This document shows positions 12,434 to 64,000 of a stretch of 64,000 nt of DNA, in pieces. The stretch covers positions 4,512,001 to 4,576,000 of the forward strand of contig CBDCTK010000002.1 in NCBI GenBank assembly GCA_965222225.1. Reading direction: 5' to 3'. A program made the translations under genes and the position numbers. Within the stretch, counting starts at the first letter, position 1. Every line of letters starts with the position of its first letter. The DNA comes from Candidatus Poribacteria bacterium. GTDB taxonomy: Bacteria > Poribacteria > WGA-4E > JAJDTR01. The notes under the pieces are model-generated. The model ran no database searches, was not told where the DNA came from, and worked only from the letters and a program-made list of their open reading frames with translations.

Positions 12434-12541
12434 AGGATTTCTATCGCCTTGGGATCTCTATGGGAACTCTATCGCACTCACTATCCGTTCGCTTGATCGC
12501 TCCTACAGGTGTTGGGTTTCACTGTGTTCAACCCAACCTAC
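12434..12541. repeat. Stacked 37-nt elements in REP context
   Basis: Two left halves plus one full unit (12462-12498), followed by GCTCCTAC and the REP GTTGGGTTTCACTGTGTTCAACCCAACCTAC. Confidence 0.8.
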
Positions 12542-31182: not shown

Positions 31183-31881
31183 ATGGAACCATCCACCGAA
31201 CCCGCACTTTTCACTTTGGAGGGGGAAAGTGTCGCCTACGAGAACAATGTCGCCTTGAAAAGTGTTTCCCTGCAAATCCACAGGGGGGAGAAGGTCGCTT
31301 TGATTGGGCCCAGCGGCGCCGGGAAAACTACGCTGCTTCGCACATTGTACGACAGAGTCGCGGGAAGATCGTCATTCGTGCATCAACATTACGCGCTCGT
31401 TCCGCAACTCTCTGCCTTCCACAACGTCTTCATCGGACGTCTTGACCAGCATTCCACAGTTTTCAACCTTCTGAACCTAATCAAACCCCAGGAAAGGATT
31501 CTGGATGAGATTGTCCCAATTTTGTCCAGACTCGGGATGGAGGAGAAGATTTTCGAGCGGGTAGTCGCGTTGTCGGGCGGTCAGCAGCAACGGGTAGCTG
31601 TCGCGCGCGCGATGTACCGCGGCGAGGATATCCTGCTGGCAGACGAACCCATCTCCTCGGTTGATCCGCATCAGGCGGCAACGGTAATGGAGTTGATTAT
31701 GCAGAGCGCAGAAACCATCGTGTTGTCACTACATGCCATCGACTTTGCGTTAAAGTTTGCCAAACGGATTATCGGACTACGTGACGGTGAGGTCCAGTTT
31801 GATTTGCCGGCTGAAAGCGTTTCTCAGACCATGCTTAGCAAGTTATACGAGAGCGAGTCTGTCGGGATTAATCTGTTTTAG
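31183..31881 (+). CDS. ABC ATPase (PhnC-like)
   Basis: GPSGAGKTT, LSGGQQQRVAVAR, LLADEP; start moved past the upstream repeat. Confidence 0.88.
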   Translation: MEPSTEPALFTLEGESVAYENNVALKSVSLQIHRGEKVALIGPSGAGKTTLLRTLYDRVAGRSSFVHQHYALVPQLSAFHNVFIGRLDQHSTVFNLLNLIKPQERILDEIVPILSRLGMEEKIFERVVALSGGQQQRVAVARAMYRGEDILLADEPISSVDPHQAATVMELIMQSAETIVLSLHAIDFALKFAKRIIGLRDGEVQFDLPAESVSQTMLSKLYESESVGINLF

Positions 31882-32047
31882 TGTGAGCCAAGGGCGGGCA
31901 TGGATTAACACAGATGATCGCGAGTACGATGAAGATTCTGTGAGCCGTCGGAAAACAGGCGATAGAATGAACATCCTAGCGGGCAGCGGAGGCGATGCTG
32001 ACGGTACGTTGTTGTTCTCCCAAAAGAAATCAGAAACAGAGGCTAAT

Positions 32048-32149
32048 AGGATCTCCATCGCACGGGATTTGCTATCGGGATTTGCTATCGCCTTCGCTAT
32101 CCGCTCAGTTGAACCCTCGTTGTTCACTCAGTTAATCGCTTCCTTGATT
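32048..32149. repeat. Triple-nested 37-nt elements
   Basis: L-L-full-R-R arrangement; full unit 32077-32114. Confidence 0.8.
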
Positions 32150-32251
32150 GCGGTGTACACTCGACGACTGCGGCCCAAGAAAGAAACTGAGTTTTCAAGA
32201 AAAAACTCGGTTTCGTCGTATGAAAATAGATTTTGCTTTACTGTTCGACGA

Positions 32252-33058
32252 ATGGCTGTCCGGACCATCGAAACTTGTGTTTTTATTCTTGTTTTCATGT
32301 GCACAGTGGCGGGATGCACGAATCGAGAACAGGACCGTGCGCGGTCGGAGGGAAAACCAGACGGTTCGGCGGAGTTGACTGTTTTTGCTGCCGCGAGTTT
32401 GACTGAAGCAATCACGAAAATCTCGAGATCGTTTGAATCCAAGCGAGATGTTAAGATCTATATGAATTTTGCCGGTTCGCAGACGTTGCAACTCCAAATT
32501 GAACGAGGGGCTCCGGCAGATTTGTTCATCTCCGCTAGCCCGAAACAGATGGATGCGTTGGAGGAAAAGGGCGCTATCCATGAATCTAGTCGCCGCAATG
32601 TGTTAAGAAACAGCTTGGTACTGGTTGCTCCGATTGAGGTTTCGCGTCAAATCCAAGGACCGGAGAATCTCACACAATCGTCTATCCGACGAATCGCAAT
32701 CGGTGAACCGAGTTCCGTTCCAGCGGGCATATACGGGGCGGAAGCTTTGAAGCGCTTAGGGATTTGGGCGGGAGTTCAACCGAAGCTGATTCCGGGAGCA
32801 GATGTTCGATCTGTGCTCGCGTATACGGAGTCGGGAGAGGTCGATTTCGGTATTGTTTACAGGACGGATGCGTCGGTGAGCGAGAAGGTCAGAGTTGCCT
32901 ATGAATTTCCCACATCGAGCCACAGCCCGATTGTATATCCAGCCGCAGTGATTCGGGGCGCAAAGCATGAAGACCTCGCACGCTTGTTTCTTCGATACCT
33001 TGAAACGCCGGAAGTCAAACGCGTCTTCGAGAACTACGGATTTTCTGCCGTCAAATGA
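32252..33058 (+). CDS. modA: Molybdate ABC substrate-binding lipoprotein
   Basis: VFAAASL, GAPADLFISAS, SVPAGIY, GIVYRTDA, PIVYP; lipobox VAGC; start approximate. Confidence 0.9.
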   Translation: MAVRTIETCVFILVFMCTVAGCTNREQDRARSEGKPDGSAELTVFAAASLTEAITKISRSFESKRDVKIYMNFAGSQTLQLQIERGAPADLFISASPKQMDALEEKGAIHESSRRNVLRNSLVLVAPIEVSRQIQGPENLTQSSIRRIAIGEPSSVPAGIYGAEALKRLGIWAGVQPKLIPGADVRSVLAYTESGEVDFGIVYRTDASVSEKVRVAYEFPTSSHSPIVYPAAVIRGAKHEDLARLFLRYLETPEVKRVFENYGFSAVK

Positions 33059-33726
33059 ACCTAACAGATATAGAGGTCGCGGCGCTCGTTATATCCGTCA
33101 AAACGGCCCTGTTTAGTTTGCTGTGTATTCTACCGGTGGGTGTCGGAGTCGGGTGGCTGCTTGCGAAGGTGGCGTTTCGCGGCAAGTCGCTACTCAATAC
33201 CCTTGTGATGCTGCCTTTGGTGTTGCCCCCCGTTGTGAGCGGATATCTGCTGCTCATATTGTTTAGCAGGCAGGGACCTATCGGCGCTATTCTCTATCGC
33301 CTGTTCGGACTTGAAATTGTCTTTTCATGGTTAGCCGTTGTTTTGGCGCTCTCCGTTATCTCGTTTCCCCTGATGGTTCGCAGCATTGTGATTGCTATGG
33401 AGGGGGTTAACCCTTTACTGGAGGGTGCGGCACGGACACTTGGAGCACGACGTTTCAAGGTGTTTTTTTCAGTCACGCTTCCGTTGTCCTACCGCGGAAT
33501 CATCGGGGGGGCGATTCTGGCATTTGCCCGGAGCCTAGGCGAATTCGGCGCCACCATGATGGTAGCCGGGAACATACCCGGAAAGACACAGACTTTGCCC
33601 TTAGCCATTTTCAATTATGTGCAGACGGGTCAAGAAGTCAGCGCCTATCGGCTGGTGTTTCTATCGACGGCTATCGCTTTTGGCGCGTTATGGCTTGCGG
33701 AAAGGCGTTATCTGAGGTCGGATTAA
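33055..33726 (+). CDS. modB: Molybdate ABC permease
   Basis: LPLVLPPVVSGY, FARSLGEFGAT, GNIPGKTQTLPLAI motifs. Confidence 0.92.
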   Translation: MNLTDIEVAALVISVKTALFSLLCILPVGVGVGWLLAKVAFRGKSLLNTLVMLPLVLPPVVSGYLLLILFSRQGPIGAILYRLFGLEIVFSWLAVVLALSVISFPLMVRSIVIAMEGVNPLLEGAARTLGARRFKVFFSVTLPLSYRGIIGGAILAFARSLGEFGATMMVAGNIPGKTQTLPLAIFNYVQTGQEVSAYRLVFLSTAIAFGALWLAERRYLRSD

Positions 33727-33848
33727 TCGACTAGACAGGAGATAAGAGTTTCTTGAAACGCGTTGTACGGAGGTGAAGGATACGCACGATCGTATTAGTC
33801 TTGGTTCTACAGATTGCTGTAGTCACACTATACGGTTGTAACGTGAAA

Positions 33849-34607
33849 ATGAGTAGCCAAGAGACAACGTTACCCAAGAGAATTGTGAGTGAGAAAGACG
33901 GCACCGAGACGATCCTGATTCCAGCCGGGGAGTTTGAGATGGGGAGCCCCAAGGACGATGATAAGCACTGGGAAAGACCTATCCAGACCGTCTATTTGGA
34001 TGCGTTCTATATGGACGTCCATCCTGTCACAAATGCGCAGTGTCAGAAGTGTGTTGAAGAGACGGGTTACCCGGCGCCGAAAAAAACGCCCCCGTTCAGC
34101 CATCCACAACAACCCGTTGTTTGGGTGACATGGTGGAATGCCATGGAATACGCGCGATGGGCGGGCAAGACACTTCAATCGGAGGCGCAGTGGGAGAAGG
34201 CGGCGCACGGCGGACTCAGCGGCAAACCGTACCCATGGGGCGACGAGGAGCCGACCCCGTCGCTGGCAAGCTACAATTCAATCTACCGCATCACGCTGCC
34301 GGTGCGCAGTTTTCCACCGAACGGTTATGGGTTGTACGATATGGCGGGAACGGTGTGGGAGTTGTGCATGGATGAATGGCAGGAAGATTTCTATTCGCGC
34401 AGCCCGCGCGAGAATCCGATCGCGGGCGGGGTTGTGTCACCAATCGTAGACCTTCGTTCGATTAAAAGCCTTCGTGTTACCCGCGGCGGGTCTTGGCATC
34501 ACAGAGCCGAACACGGGTTGGATGTTTTTCATCGATCCTATAGTCCGGTAGATTTCATTGAGGACTTTCAGGGATTCCGCTGTGTGAAACTGGCGGTGAC
34601 TAAATGA
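33849..34607 (+). CDS. FGE-sulfatase/SUMF1 domain protein
   Basis: IPAGEFEMGS, EAQWEKAA, PNGYGLYDMAG, RGGSW, GFRC motifs. Confidence 0.85.
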   Translation: MSSQETTLPKRIVSEKDGTETILIPAGEFEMGSPKDDDKHWERPIQTVYLDAFYMDVHPVTNAQCQKCVEETGYPAPKKTPPFSHPQQPVVWVTWWNAMEYARWAGKTLQSEAQWEKAAHGGLSGKPYPWGDEEPTPSLASYNSIYRITLPVRSFPPNGYGLYDMAGTVWELCMDEWQEDFYSRSPRENPIAGGVVSPIVDLRSIKSLRVTRGGSWHHRAEHGLDVFHRSYSPVDFIEDFQGFRCVKLAVTK

Positions 34608-34662
34608 GAGGTTTTTCCATTGAGGCTGAATCTGCGTATATTCCTATTTTCCGGGACGCCAA

Positions 34663-36153
34663 ATGCTGAAAACAAGCCTTCTCTTTGTCGCAATTGCGCT
34701 TGTTGCACTTCTCTTGGCGGACCTTGAGATATCGACGCAGAATCCGTGGATCGAACTTGGCCGCATGGCTAAGGGAGCAGTAACTCCAGATTTCCTCGCG
34801 GTCTGGGGTTTTTGGAATGCACTTCTTAACACGGTAGTCTTTGCACTTTGCGGCATTTGCCTCGCCGTAGTATTCGGCGTCGTGCTCGCATTCTTTTTTC
34901 GTTTTACTCCCGTTCGGCTGTTCTGTGCTTTTGTCCGCGCCATTCACGAGATTTTCTGGGCGTTCATTTTCCTGCCCGTGGTCGGGCTTAACTCGGTTTG
35001 CGGCGTGCTTGCTATCGCGATACCTTACGCCGGTATTTTCGCCAAGGTTTACGCGGAGATTGTCCAAGAGTCAGACCACCGCCCCCTAGAGGGGGTACCT
35101 ACTCGGTCCGGAGGCCTGAGCCGATTTGTTTACGGCATCCTTCCCGTCATTTACGCCGATGCGAAGCATTATACCGGTTACCGTTTCGAGTGTGCGTTGC
35201 GATCCAGCGCCATTCTTGGATTCATTGGCCTTCCGACGCTTGGATTTCACTTGGAGACCGCATTTCGAGAAGGACTGTACTCCGAAGCGGCAGCTTTACT
35301 TTATGCTTTCTATTTGCTAGTTGCGTCGCTGAAATACTGGGTCAAAGCCCGCTTGATACCGCTCTATGTCGCAGCGGCGTTTGTTCTTCTGTCTTGGGAG
35401 GTCACCCTGTCGTGGTCAAATATCTCGCGGTTCTTCACTTATGAAATTCTGCCTTGGCCCATGCGTCAGGAAGGGGTATCGACGGGCACCTATGGCGTAT
35501 CGTTTGCTTGGCAGCCTGAATGGCAGTGGATGCGAGACATCATCCTGGGAGAGGGTTGGAAGGGCACTTGGAACACAGTGGTATTGACCCAGATTGTATT
35601 GGTGGGCACGGGGATGTTTACGCTGTTGAGTTTTCCGTTTGCCTGCCGACATTTCACCGGCAAGGTCGCGGGTCGAATTTCGCACTATCTGCTAATTGTT
35701 CTGCGCACGACGCCGGAGTATATTCTCGCTTTCGTCTTTGTGCAACTTTGGGGGCCGTCAATGTTACCGGCTGTTTGTGCTATTCTCCTACATAACGGGG
35801 CGGTATTGGCTTTTCTGACCAGCAACAATGCCGATCTCGTTACGTTACGACTAGACGCGCCGCATAAACGGTTGGACCGTTACTTCTATGAGATTCTTCC
35901 ACGTGTATACGGACAGTTCCTCGCTTTTCTTTTCTATCGATGGGAGGTAATGATGCGCGAGTCCGCCATGCTTGGCATACTTGGCGTTTATACGCTAGGC
36001 TTTTATATCCATAGCGCGATTGAAGCCGTTCATATGGACAAAGTGATTTTACTCATATTCGTCACTGCCGCGCTCAACATGGGGATTGACAGCGTGTCTC
36101 AGTTGATGCGCCGCCGCCTTAAAATCTCTACGAAACTGGTGACATCGGCTTGA
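34663..36153 (+). CDS. PhnE/PtxC-type ABC permease (duplicated TM domains)
   Basis: RAIHEIFWA, YRFECALRSSAILG, RTTPEY, YRWEVMMRES motifs. Confidence 0.85.
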   Translation: MLKTSLLFVAIALVALLLADLEISTQNPWIELGRMAKGAVTPDFLAVWGFWNALLNTVVFALCGICLAVVFGVVLAFFFRFTPVRLFCAFVRAIHEIFWAFIFLPVVGLNSVCGVLAIAIPYAGIFAKVYAEIVQESDHRPLEGVPTRSGGLSRFVYGILPVIYADAKHYTGYRFECALRSSAILGFIGLPTLGFHLETAFREGLYSEAAALLYAFYLLVASLKYWVKARLIPLYVAAAFVLLSWEVTLSWSNISRFFTYEILPWPMRQEGVSTGTYGVSFAWQPEWQWMRDIILGEGWKGTWNTVVLTQIVLVGTGMFTLLSFPFACRHFTGKVAGRISHYLLIVLRTTPEYILAFVFVQLWGPSMLPAVCAILLHNGAVLAFLTSNNADLVTLRLDAPHKRLDRYFYEILPRVYGQFLAFLFYRWEVMMRESAMLGILGVYTLGFYIHSAIEAVHMDKVILLIFVTAALNMGIDSVSQLMRRRLKISTKLVTSA

Positions 36154-36300
36154 CCTACGGCACGGAGTTTTGGTTCGCTGCTTGAATCCGTCAAGAAGGA
36201 TAGGGTTGGAAGAGTGGAAGGTTGGAAGTTTCACTTTCACACCGCCCTTAATAGCTCATTGTTCTAGAGCGGATGGAGGGGCTGCCGTTTTTCTGTAAAC

Positions 36301-36490
36301 TAGAACTTACGCAGTAACAGGAGGTCGCGACGGTAGGCAGGGATCAAGCAAGATCAAGGGAGTGAATAATGACCGCGATAGAGATCTTCTTGCCCTGCCA
36401 CGTATAGACGAGACGTCGCGATCTGGAGATCGCTCCTACAGGGATTGAAGCGTAGAAACGGGAATTAAACTACCCTACCACGAACCTTTA
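36301..36490. repeat. Repeat mosaic with REP split by a 37-nt element (36352-36389)
   Basis: TAGAACTTACGCAGT end; GTAGGCAGG|unit|TTGCCCTGCCAC; segment shared with 21764-21801. Confidence 0.7.
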
Positions 36491-36730
36491 GAGCCTGATT
36501 GAATAATCGGTGGCAAAGCCATTTTTGGTCATTTGTGGCAAGTTTTTTCATGTTTTCATTGTTGGCTGCTACATACCTGTGGGATTACTATCGCACGGGA
36601 TTTGCTATGGAGTTCTATCGCCTTCCTTATCCTGTCAGTTGATCGGTCACTATCCGTTCCCTTGATCGTTATCCGCTCGTTTGATCGGAGTGCGCACCCT
36701 ACGAGAAATGGTGCGCGGTGCCCACCCTAC
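36491..36730 (+). mobile_element. TTA-MITE copy lacking right TIR, containing triple-nested 37-nt elements
   Basis: tta|GAGCCTGATTGAATAATCGG...; nested block 36581-36686. Confidence 0.75.
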
Positions 36731-36849
36731 AAGTGCTTGAGTTCATCCCAACCTTCGGGGCGGCTGATATGAGTGTGCCGTCTGGATTTGTTAATCCAGG
36801 CCGAGCGGATAGGAAGCGCACCAAGTAAGGAAGCACCATATTAATTCCA

Positions 36850-37980
36850 ATGAATCGAGTTGAATCGCTTTACATCCATGTGCCCTTCTGTGCCACGAAG
36901 TGCTACTACTGCGCTTTTAATACGTACGCCTTCCACAAGGAACAGGCACACCATTATCTTGAAGCGTTGCGAACCGAGATGGAACTCTACCGTCTTGATT
37001 CCGACGGATTAAAAACGGTTTTCATCGGAGGCGGAACTCCATCAATTCTGTCCGTGGAATCGTTGGAACGGTTGTTCGAGCATTTGCACGCCGTTTTTGG
37101 GATCGAGGCAGCAGCAGAAATCACCGTCGAATGTAATCCCGGGACCGTAGATCGCCAGAAACTAGAGGTAATGCGTTCTGGAGGGGTGAATCGCTTGAGT
37201 TTCGGGATACAGGCGATGGACGATGCTACACTGCGAGAGATCGGACGGATTCACACGGTGGACGAAGCAGTCCAAAGTTATGACCTCGCACGCGGAGTCG
37301 GGTTCGACAACATCAACCTCGATCTGATATTTGCGCTGCCCAACCAAACGGTTGAGGAGTGGAAAGCTTGTCTTAACGAGGTGATGGCACTCCAGCCGGA
37401 ACACGTCTCAGCGTACAATCTGATGATTGAGGAGGGAACCGTTTTCTATGAGTCAATGCGAACGGGAAAACTTCGGCGGCTTTCTGATGAGGTTGAAGCC
37501 AAAATGTATCACGTCACCATTGACACGTTAGCCGACTACGGCTATCAACACTATGAGATTTCCAGCTTTTCCAAGCCGTGTTGTGCCGCGAAACATAATC
37601 TGGTATACTGGGACAATCAGTCATATATCGGACTAGGACCAGGTGCGTGTGGGTATATCAACGGGGTGCGTTACTCCAATATCCGTGGTGTTCAGGATTA
37701 TATTGAGTCCCTTAAACAGGGCAGAAAACCGATTGCAGATTCCGAGCAATTGACCGGGCGAGATGAAAAGGCGGAAACAGTCATTCTCGGTCTTCGGAAA
37801 CGAGACGGGATTCGGGAAGAGGAATATCAAAGGCGATTCGGCGAGTCGATTAACGATGAATTCGAGGATGTTCTCGACAAATGGATTGGCATGAATCTGT
37901 TGGAGTGGGCAAACGACTATCTCCGGTTAACTAAGCGAGGGCTTTTCCTAGCCAATGAGGTCTTCGTAGATTTCCTGTAG
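36850..37980 (+). CDS. hemW: Radical SAM heme chaperone HemW
   Basis: LYIHVPFCATKCYYCAF, GGGTPS, YEISSF, HNLVYW motifs. Confidence 0.92.
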   Translation: MNRVESLYIHVPFCATKCYYCAFNTYAFHKEQAHHYLEALRTEMELYRLDSDGLKTVFIGGGTPSILSVESLERLFEHLHAVFGIEAAAEITVECNPGTVDRQKLEVMRSGGVNRLSFGIQAMDDATLREIGRIHTVDEAVQSYDLARGVGFDNINLDLIFALPNQTVEEWKACLNEVMALQPEHVSAYNLMIEEGTVFYESMRTGKLRRLSDEVEAKMYHVTIDTLADYGYQHYEISSFSKPCCAAKHNLVYWDNQSYIGLGPGACGYINGVRYSNIRGVQDYIESLKQGRKPIADSEQLTGRDEKAETVILGLRKRDGIREEEYQRRFGESINDEFEDVLDKWIGMNLLEWANDYLRLTKRGLFLANEVFVDFL

Positions 37981-51113: not shown

Positions 51114-51254
51114 AAATCTGCAGATTGGCCTGCGGGAAATAAGCACACGAGTGCAAGTAGCGCATAAGGGGGGCATTAAGCAATGCTCTCAGGTGGCAGG
51201 TGGCAGGTGGCAGGTGGCTTAACACATCTATTACGAATACAGTTGAGGCAGTTG

Positions 51255-58352: not shown

Positions 58353-58380
58353 CCCGGCTATTCACCACCTTTGCCCTTTA

Positions 58381-58618
58381 GAGCCTGATTGAATAATCGG
58401 TAGCAAAGCCATTTTTGGTCATTTGAAGACACGATTTTTCATGTTGTTATTGTTGCCTGCTACGTACCTGTGGGATCCCTACGAGATTTCTATCGCGGTG
58501 GGATCTTCTATCGCACTCGCTATCTGCTCGCTTGATCCTATTCGGTCACTTGATCACTCGTTATCCACTCGCTTGATCGCAGTGCGCACCCTACAAACTG
58601 TACTTTTCAAACAGGCTC
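58381..58618 (+). mobile_element. Complete TTA-MITE with triple-nested 37-nt elements (58472-58578)
   Basis: tta|GAGCCTGATTGAA...TTCAAACAGGCTC|ttg. Confidence 0.85.
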
Positions 58619-58622
58619 TTGA

Positions 58623-63232: not shown

Positions 63233-63433
63233 GAGCCTGTTTGAATAAGCGGGAGCAAAGCCATTTTTGATCATTTGTAGGAAGTTTTTTCATGTTTTTA
63301 TTGTTGCCAGCTACGTACTGTGGGATCCCTATCGCACTCGTTATCCACTCGCTTGAGGGGATCTCTATCGCGCTCGTAATCCACTCGCTTGATCGCAGTG
63401 CACACCCTACAAATGTACTTTTCAAACAGGCTC
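63233..63433 (+). mobile_element. Complete TTA-MITE with two tandem 37-nt elements (63322-63394)
   Basis: tta|GAGCCTGTTTGAA...TTCAAACAGGCTC|tta; right TTA is the stop codon of the adjacent - strand gene. Confidence 0.88.
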
Positions 63434-64000
63434 TTACTCATGGAAACTGAATGAGAAGATCTTTGATTCTCGCAGTTCGAACTTCAACTTAATCTCCCTG
63501 TCCTTTAGTCTATCCAACGCGAGTCCGGCTCTCCACGCTATCTTCGCGTCTGAAACGGTGGTTGTTACCAACTTCCCTTCAGCCACTCGTTTGTTGTCTT
63601 TGTCCAAGAGAGTGACCTTGACAAAGCCGGACGGCGCGACATCGGCGCTGATGCAGAGCGAATTGCCGACGATCGATACGGCTTTGGTCGTAAGTGCCCC
63701 GGTGCTGTTGCTTCCTCCGGCGATCTGTTCGTAGCCGGCAAAACCGTCGGGCCGAAACCGAGCCAGGGCAAAGTAGCCGTTGCGCCAGCCCATGAACCTA
63801 CCGTCGTTCGCACCGTAGTAAAGGAGAATCTCGTCTTCCATCACAATCGGGGTGGACGCAAAGATGCAGCCCCAGTCATAGTCGCCCATCACCGCGCCAT
63901 TCGGAATCAGCGGCTTGCCGGGCTGGATCCGATGCCATTGCTTGCTATCCGGGCTCCATGCCAATTCGCACCATTGCCTGCTCGCTTCGATGTCAAAGAG
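63434..64000 (-). CDS. Partial hypothetical protein, beta-propeller glycosidase-like C-terminus
   Basis: ELAWSPD..W, LYYGA, LARFRPDGF motifs; runs off window end. Confidence 0.55.
   Translation of the reverse strand, partial: LFDIEASRQWCELAWSPDSKQWHRIQPGKPLIPNGAVMGDYDWGCIFASTPIVMEDEILLYYGANDGRFMGWRNGYFALARFRPDGFAGYEQIAGGSNSTGALTTKAVSIVGNSLCISADVAPSGFVKVTLLDKDNKRVAEGKLVTTTVSDAKIAWRAGLALDRLKDREIKLKFELRESKIFSFSFHE

Follow-up and report, generated by a model that had tools for sequence, protein, structure and literature searches.

Small dispersed repeats (SDRs) of Nostoc punctiforme and its relatives, of which SDR4, SDR5 and SDR6 were reportedly described by Elhai and colleagues in 2008, are 21-27 nt long, occur nested and have a conserved secondary structure. 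Insertion sequences of the IS200/IS605 family (IS608, ISDra2) are recognized as single-stranded hairpins, cause no target duplication and have an orientation linked to the direction of replication. The repeat described here is 37 nt long and has the SDRs as its nearest known phenomenon, compared by description and not by sequence. It was studied in a stretch of 64,000 nt from Candidatus Poribacteria bacterium (assembly GCA_965222225.1, contig CBDCTK010000002.1, positions 4,512,001 to 4,576,000), referred to below as the window; coordinates are those of the window unless a contig is named. The unit is a hairpin element that inserts into copies of itself, with a small loss of target bases and no target duplication.

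A position matrix was built from 337 clean genomic units and aligned locally to the region. By this alignment, 36581-36686 is made up of five contiguous pieces of one 37-nt repeat, all on the plus strand and in the order L-L-F-R-R (F, full unit; L and R, 5' and 3' parts of an interrupted host unit). The outermost host begins with L1 (model columns 1-16, 36581-36596, 21.3 bits) and the middle host with L2 (columns 1-11, 36597-36608, 15.6 bits); the innermost unit is complete (columns 2-37, 36609-36644, 41.3 bits) and has the stem dinucleotides x=CT/w=AG and y=CC/z=TG. R2, the 3' part of the middle host, follows at 36645-36667 (GG plus columns 17-37, equal to columns 15-37), and R1, that of the outer host, at 36668-36686 (columns 19-37). 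When L2 and R2 were rejoined, only columns 12-14 (CGC) were missing and x=GG paired with w=CC. When L1 and R1 were rejoined, only columns 17-18 (TC) were missing and x=AC paired with w=GT. The sequence, coordinates and parse in a preliminary description of the locus were correct, with CGC and TC as the sole gaps in the rejoined hosts. The loss of 2-3 nt given there stands for the CGC of the middle host; that of TC in the outer host is ambiguous because every unit ends in GATC, so that the TC can also be assigned to the end of the preceding GATC and the loss may be 0.

Two sister nests, reported before, were also parsed as L-L-F-R-R on the plus strand by matrix alignment. The nest at 58472-58578 lies inside a complete copy (58380-58619) of a miniature inverted-repeat transposable element (MITE), and its hosts have lost 2 and 3 columns. 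The nest at 32048-32148 lies outside any MITE, with 9 columns missing from the outer pair; its second L is 13 nt long and has the same sequence as the next head, giving a perfect tandem copy at 32063-32090.

For the whole genome, 945 clusters were parsed and abutting pieces were joined into 1620 runs. Single full units accounted for 436 runs, L-F-R for 114, L-L-F-R-R for 14 and L-L-L-F-R-R for 3. The reversed order, R-F-L, was found in 0 runs; exact F-F tandems were found in 10 (20 runs contained F-F at any place), R-F in 12 and F-L in 4. With 114 L-F-R runs against 10 F-F and no R-F-L, true nesting by insertion of whole units, rather than tandem slippage, is the main pattern, as proposed in the preliminary description.

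Losses were calculated for 145 host L/R pairs from 129 balanced nests, net loss being the number of missing columns minus filler bases. The pairs were almost all distinct (143/145 unique in sequence), and the L, F and R of nests belonged to different subtypes. Net loss was 2 nt in 58 pairs and 3 nt in 48 (106 together), 0 nt in 12, 1 nt in 4, 4 nt in 3 and 5-14 nt in 13; negative, duplication-like values were found in 7, which agrees with the claim that no target duplication is made. A net loss of 0-4 nt was seen in 125 pairs, whereas 2000 shuffles that re-paired the L and R pieces averaged 54 such pairs and never exceeded 72. The two halves of a host also pair with each other better than shuffled halves, a check that had been suggested. 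Where the split separated x from w (L with x, R with w), both base pairs formed in 30/72 hosts, compared with a shuffled mean of 14.6 and maximum of 24 (0/5000 shuffles reached 30); where it separated y from z, both formed in 16/20, a value reached by 3/5000 shuffles.

The host L piece ended at column 11 in 46 pairs and at column 12 in 19, at column 16 in 34 and at column 17 in 15, at columns 21-24 in 23 and elsewhere in 8. Self-insertion has three hot spots, after columns 11-12, 16-17 and 21-24, and the bases replaced in the hosts are CGC (columns 12-14), TC or C plus yy (columns 17-20) and (T)YC in the loop; the breakpoints, which had been described as different among nests, fall at these hot spots.

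The top strand of the unit reads RGGAT-YN-C TATCGC xx TC yy TATYC zz TC ww TTGATC. The strict core pattern is present in 589 copies genome-wide (263 on the plus and 326 on the minus strand), and the matrix over columns 9-37 gave 1372 matches at 14 bits or more; one shuffled chromosome, used as a chance control, gave 8 matches at 12 bits or more. The units are intergenic: although a crude gene set takes up 78% of the chromosome, the midpoint fell inside one of its genes for only 43 of 971 full units. In the window, no Rfam family was matched at gathering thresholds (at E<=10 solely CRISPR-DR54, E 8.3) and no tRNA genes were found.

Each unit has a single hairpin over columns 10-36, in which ATC (columns 10-12) faces GAT (columns 34-36), followed inwards by 2 bp, an invariant TC/TC mismatch, 2 bp and a 5-nt loop. 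Both x/w pairs were Watson-Crick in 543/856 full units (shuffled expectation 106) and both y/z pairs in 666/856 (shuffled expectation 153), with 0/5000 shuffles reaching the observed value in either case. The two 2-bp stems covary freely, with 206 stem combinations among the 589 strict-core copies. The value of 30/72 for split hosts lies below that for intact units, as expected if interrupted hosts decay. Mismatches in the stems were asymmetric, with 370 A.C and 59 G.T, so that wobble pairs would form on the complementary (bottom) strand, where TC/TC would become tandem G.A/A.G, in established nucleic-acid chemistry a stable non-canonical motif. The bottom-strand fold.(((..((..((.....))..))..)))......... 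was the minimum-energy structure in 201 of the distinct 37-nt units. Units with identical cores form 1820 pairs, and in 1224 of these the identity ended 0-2 nt past column 37, which marks a sharp right end of the unit. Columns 1-3 were always purines, with G and A varying freely (GGG, AGG, GAG, GGA, AAG, GAA, AAA); this is equivalent to C/T variation in the unpaired 3' tail of the bottom strand.

To examine insertion into other sequences, 565 probes for empty sites were taken from the flanks of single units or balanced nests. They matched 212 paralogous empty sites, which belong to at least 12 target classes and all lie in or beside a hairpin loop, with 2-4 nt replaced. With the replaced bases written between slashes, the targets in a GTAG-tagged repeat are GGT/GC/GCAGTGCGC and GCGCAG/TGC/GCACC; the others include ACCTGT/CGC/CCCGCTGGGGC, CAA/TC/TGTTAGATTG, AGA/TC/GCTCCTAC, GAA/GC/CCGACC and CAC/TGT/GTT. 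The two sites in the GTAG repeat held either an insert of exactly 37 nt, in 15 copies at one and 16 at the other, or a 71-nt nest, and no abortive or truncated insert of 4-36 nt was found; whole units, not fragments, were therefore inserted. A site ACCTGT/CGC/CCC downstream of a gene for a Y1 transposase was filled in genome G000, in copy 1 of G001 and in G005, and was empty in copy 2 of G001 and in G002, G009, G004 and G012. The left flanks of the inserts varied (CTAT, GCAC, CAG, GGT and others).

Abutting pieces had the same orientation in 1220 cases and different orientations in 93, and neighbours 5-200 nt apart had the same orientation in 648 cases and opposite orientations in 67. Nests had been described as always in one orientation, which is true of the window; genome-wide the preference is about 6:1, with 114 L-F-R runs vs 21 clean inverted single nests, all of the latter at the hot spot at columns 12-13. 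Unit orientation matched the sign of the local GC skew at 458/675 loci. No dependence on the strands of the flanking genes was found: plus-strand units lay between two plus-strand genes in 113 cases and between two minus-strand genes in 95, and minus-strand units in 161 and 98. The tie between orientation and skew is suggestive of an association with replication or single-stranded DNA; loss of copies that have the folding strand on the lagging-strand template could produce it just as well.

The head of the unit adjoins the hairpin foot on its 5' side. Which head class an inserted unit had depended on the insertion site (308 unique junctions, chi-square 167.5, 0/5000 permutations). Nine-nucleotide heads (GGGATTTNC) were found in 60/67 insertions after column 16; eight-nucleotide heads with T at column 5, mostly GGGATCTC or AGGATCTC, in 29/33 insertions after column 17; and heads with A, G or C at column 5 (GGGAACTC, GGGAGTTC, GGGAGCTC) in 88/178 insertions after columns 11-12. 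The last three heads were nearly restricted to nests and stood almost only after CTAT. Examples of such site-tied heads in the window are at 12451-12461 and 32064-32076. The head class was uncoupled from the unit's own core, and among the 1820 pairs with identical cores identity was lost 1-3 nt left of column 9 in 1183. Slippage deletions would fuse the head of a host to the core of an insert, and identical-core units would therefore mostly differ in their heads. No simple complementarity between head and flanking target was seen by eye. The head-site tie could have its source in slippage survivorship or in gene conversion.

The ends of IS200/IS605 elements carry a guide tetranucleotide at the place equivalent to the head of the unit. 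It is imaginable, though rather unlikely, that the unit is a minimal self-contained targeting module, in which the variable head of 4-5 bases would serve as guide for a trans-acting single-strand enzyme, the head classes would home to different sites, self-sites included, and 2-3 target bases would be swapped for the unit. If true, this would be a new programmable, target-replacing form of DNA mobility carried by 37 nt.

Strain comparison was carried out with contigs of four runs from four studies over 31500-37500. The second L at 32063 (13 nt) was absent from the contigs of two other studies, and 23 extra bases with a unit head behind 36374 were present in the contigs of two runs. Both indels lie between direct head repeats, and both represent slippage from one repeated head to another and not new insertions. 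The strain polymorphism that was to be looked for in nests is seen in these two variants, of slippage type, and slippage, which had been dismissed, does act on nests. Two other studies have contigs that open at 36645 and cover R2, R1 and the downstream gene, and the R2-R1 junction is therefore independent of this assembly. An assembly artefact, against which the preliminary description advised a check for collapsed repeats, is unlikely, given this junction and the uniqueness of 143/145 junction pairs; among the contigs shown from the four runs, none bridged 36520-36645. Nests break short-read assemblies, and together with the slippage variants (window 32063-32076 and 36374) they can serve as strain markers for uncultured sponge symbionts.

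The strict core was searched for in a phylum sample of 151 genomes and was found in 17; the reversed pattern, used as control, gave 0 in every genome. Hundreds of copies were present in 8/8 genomes of g1 in addition to the genome under study, and 125-144 copies in 4/4 genomes of g4; one g6 genome had 16 and three others 1-2, and in family f2 the core was found in 0/100 genomes. Among the at least 80 stretches listed in a scan of all species, 78 were from Poribacteria and 2 were single matches elsewhere. The family is confined to a few Poribacteria genera.

Candidate enzymes were sought among the Y1 and RVT_1 proteins. The genome has five Y1_Tnp loci, and the best protein (Y1a; 157 aa, intact, G000:C2:3080258-3080728, L033 1384-1857, minus strand) passes the NCBIfam model for IS200/IS605 (65.8 bits, cut-off 55) and fails that for RAYT (30.6 bits, cut-off 80). 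Its nearest solved structures are Deinococcus/ISDra2 transposases (E 5e-6 to 1e-5). The Y1a gene is present in 1-4 copies per genome in 18/31 relatives. A second intact Y1 protein, 247 aa long, is encoded at L034:1120-1863. The gene is bracketed by inverted ACAGGT..ACCTGT and GCCCCnCTGGGGC hairpins, modules that also fill the interior of the MITE, and the MITE may, judging from these shared modules, be a gene-less derivative of the Y1a element. An arrangement in which Y1 genes are flanked by inverted units (a REPtron) was considered, as 3/5 loci looked so, and was rejected because relatives contradict it.

A reverse transcriptase was likewise rejected as mobiliser. The genome's sole RVT_1 match is an AbiA-type defence enzyme (670 aa, PADLOC 254.8 bits, G000:C2:4499560-4501572, L206 1560-3572, minus strand) beside a type I restriction gene, and no RVT_1 match was obtained in the unit-rich genomes G006, G007 and G009. 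The AbiA-type gene lies about 11 kb before the window, next to a gene for a type I restriction R-subunit-like protein, and is syntenic in several species of the genus.

Taken together, these data make it likely that the 37-nt unit is a very small non-autonomous mobile DNA element, inserted many times into hairpin or palindromic repeats and into itself, the folded single strand being transferred into hairpin targets by an enzyme acting in trans and the nests being trimmed by slippage. It would be among the smallest mobile DNA elements seen. Whole units have been inserted, separately and many times, into short hairpin or palindromic repeats and into the three self hot spots. A structure-specific enzyme provided in trans would recognize the folded single strand and both ends of the unit, and would move the unit into hairpin targets that replication forks expose in single-stranded form. 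Slippage between repeated heads or tails would later trim the nests, leaving orphan L and R pieces and host-derived heads. The enzyme could belong to the Y1/HUH-type single-strand nuclease-ligases, a tentative assignment that we would not favour over its negation and in which no gene is tied to the unit. The earlier statement that the mechanism would be unlike DDE transposition fits the junctions, with their small loss and lack of duplication.

Several observations weigh against mobility of this kind. Compound arrays were unbalanced in 264 of 393 cases (L was in excess in 165 and R in 99), and their orphan pieces end at the same hot spots as balanced nests; the ordered record of events that nests had been said to hold is therefore eroded, as these 264 arrays are without a partner. 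The 6 kb compared between strains yielded two differences, both of slippage type, and no new insertion, and the relatives, 82-90% identical, are too diverged for an orthologous comparison of intergenic regions. The hairpin is weak thermodynamically: the mean energy of the bottom strand was -5.21 vs -4.97 for shuffled sequences with RNA parameters, and DNA z-scores were +0.4 to +1.3. As the pairing is conserved without a gain in energy, the structure would be read by a protein rather than act as a stable free hairpin. In classical HUH insertion the target loses no bases and must contain a fixed word, and the unit shows neither property. The strand that tolerates wobble pairs is mostly that of the leading-strand template, which is contrary to the IS608 rule. 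The head-site tie could also stem from gene conversion of founder junctions.

On the side of the enzyme, no cognate gene was found for the unit among the Y1 and RVT_1 candidates. In relatives the native flanks of the Y1a gene are GCCCCnCTGGGGC hairpins, the unit being a secondary insert in 3 loci, and a RAYT-like family with 21 loci had no consistent flanking. The unit and the Y1a family differ in distribution: the unit is abundant in g1 (9/9 and the genome under study) and g4 (4/4), and Y1a homologues were found in unit-free g6 (3/3) and g9 (1/1) genomes and were not found in two unit-bearing g4 genomes.

It was also considered whether a few founder insertions could have spread by gene conversion or template switching, that is, by short-homology recombination through the conserved head and tail, with no mobility enzyme. 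Such a process would account for three fixed hot spots with a characteristic loss at each, for the tie of head class to site, for the uncoupling of head and core and for the head slippage directly seen between strains. It would leave unexplained how units first entered at least 12 unrelated hairpin targets as inserts of exactly 37 nt; moreover, the cores inserted at one hot spot are highly diverse, 143/145 host/insert combinations are unique and the flanking homology amounts to just 11-23 nt. We therefore regard spread by recombination as unlikely.

Retro-insertion through RNA seems more doubtful still. Copying of a folded bottom-strand transcript would here begin at a nick in the left junction; 1-2 nt of microhomology would then serve to close the right one, with a small loss of target, as in target-primed reverse transcription. 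The wobble asymmetry suits a bottom-strand RNA, in which G.U is allowed; the replaced target segment ends in C, as does the unit, in most target classes; losses range over 0-14 nt; and the first three bases are variable purines. The defence-type nature of the sole RVT_1 match, the lack of such a match in the three unit-rich genomes named above and the lack of truncated inserts in non-self targets make it very improbable.

Arrays could in principle have formed with no insertion at all, from tandem units by slippage, partial duplication and deletion, and the polymorphic perfect 13-nt tandem copy at 32063-32090 and the common orphan L and R pieces are of the kind that this would produce. This origin is scarcely credible in view of the ratio of F-F to L-F-R runs (10 to 114, with 0 in reversed order), the complementary lengths of L and R (within 2-3 nt) and their pairing stems, the different subtypes of L, F and R, and the empty and filled sites in other repeats. 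The last possibility, a host-functional element (a protein-binding or RNA-structure module with selected compound forms) or a collapsed-repeat assembly artefact, would suit the strongly conserved structure, the strictly intergenic location and the breaking of short-read contigs at the nest, and has next to no probability, since orientation is independent of the direction of flanking genes, no Rfam family matches, pairing is lost in interrupted units (30/72 vs 543/856), the genus has nine further assemblies with hundreds of copies, of which several consist of a single contig, and the R2-R1 junction recurs in the contigs of two other studies.

The focal nest is embedded in a MITE-like element of about 240 bp, which in complete copies has the terminal inverted repeat AGAGCCTGnTTGAA. 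Its left arm, with this terminal repeat, is at 36487-36580 on the plus strand (98 BLAST matches in the genome, 78 of them near full length), and GTAG-tagged hairpin remnants of the repetitive extragenic palindromic (REP) type from the MITE interior (..GTGCGCACCCTAC, GGTGCGCGGTGCCCACCCTAC) follow the nest at 36687-36733 on the plus strand, as identified by sequence and BLAST. The usual right terminal repeat is absent from this copy (36487-36735); the other MITE copies in the window are at 58380-58619 and 63250-63436. Small hairpins form a mosaic in the MITE interior, namely GCCCCnCTGGGGC and GGTGCGCAGTGCGCACCCTAC, of which the latter is GTAG-tagged and has 98 uninterrupted copies in the genome. 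The number and position of 37-nt units vary among MITE copies, and the third copy holds a rare F-F tandem of two full units (63322-63394, plus strand, by matrix alignment). At the orthologous site the closest species, G005, has no MITE and 32 nt between the genes, and other relatives have unrelated repeats instead, so that nest depth is not comparable. The minus strand of the MITE arm has no open reading frame, which rules out a hidden gene there.

Matrix alignment also placed an L-L-F array without R partners at 12434-12498 on the plus strand, abutting a REP half (GCTCCTAC), and a minus-strand unit (36352-36386) with a short R fragment (36342-36349) at 36342-36386. A third short repeat, GACGTCGCGATCTGGAGATCGCTCCTAC, occurs at 36413-36441 and at about 68 other sites in the genome, its other strand consisting of GTAG plus a hairpin; it too is a target of the 37-nt unit, at AGA/TC/GCT. 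A perfect tandem repeat of the 7-nt CAGGTGG (4.1 copies) lies at 51190-51218. The genome is 5.70 Mb in 2 contigs with 50% GC. Instead of a simple two-arm pattern, the cumulative GC skew of contig C2 (5.6 Mb, 24 bins) turns at least six times, suggestive of numerous inversions or assembly joins.

Compared with known systems, the unit differs from DDE-type MITEs in having neither terminal inverted repeats nor a target-site duplication; its host element of about 240 bp does have the repeats. Integron attC sites are conserved in structure over sequence, fold on one strand and have conserved mismatched bases in the stem. The unit resembles them in all three respects and differs in lacking cassettes and an integrase context and in being itself the DNA that is inserted. 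IS1397 reportedly inserts into the palindromic units within bacterial interspersed mosaic elements, with a target duplication, and members of the IS110 family are reported to target REP hairpins. The loop region of small extragenic hairpins is the target in these cases as well, but they are kilobase elements that encode their own enzyme, whereas the unit is non-coding and 37 nt long.

With IS200/IS605 elements and the PATEs derived from them, which lack genes, the unit shares the lack of target duplication (duplicated columns in 7/145 pairs). Unlike them, it has no fixed target word, loses 2-3 nt in 106/145 pairs and has one hairpin rather than two distinct ends each with a subterminal hairpin, and at 37 nt it is far below the size of any described member. 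The REP/REPIN-RAYT systems are similar in consisting of short, intergenic, imperfect hairpins in hundreds of copies in a genome with Y1_Tnp genes. A classical GTAG-tagged REP coexists in this genome and is itself a target of the unit. The unit differs from such systems in that its consensus is without a GTAG-type tag, which the coexisting GGTGCGCAGTGCGCACCCTAC repeat has; in that no Y1/RAYT gene is consistently flanked by inverted units; in the shared orientation of neighbours (648 vs 67) in place of inverted doublets; and in nesting within itself.

Literature on Poribacteria repeats, MITE, REP/RAYT and nested insertion into hairpin loops was searched and nothing on the unit was found; to our knowledge the only comparable case is that of the cyanobacterial SDRs. 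Like these, the unit is tens of bases long, non-coding, dispersed and intergenic, is judged to be mobile on the evidence of filled and empty sites and inserts at or near the centre of palindromes. It is below about 40 nt and present in about 1,370 copies, and its filled vs empty homologous sites comprise 212 matches in at least 12 classes. At 37 nt it is longer than the SDRs. SDR5 is described as inserting with precision between bases three and four of the HIP1 palindrome (PMC4390886), whereas the 37-nt unit usually loses 2-3 target bases. HIP1 is rare in the present genome (120 copies), and a cyanobacterial origin, suggested by the appearance of the repeats, was rejected. A further paper found SDR-like repeats in Nostocaceae only (PMC5861425), whereas the present unit is carried by Poribacteria. 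The unit adds to a little-studied class of very small mobile repeats. If 37 nt suffice for repeated, precise and hairpin-directed insertion, they set a lower bound for mobile DNA, and the mobility proposed here, if true, points to an enzyme activity that swaps a few bases of a single-stranded hairpin for a defined cassette. As a second and much richer family than the SDRs, with about 1,400 copies per genome, covarying stems, three self-targets and a tie of head to site, the unit could make the question of the SDR mechanism testable.

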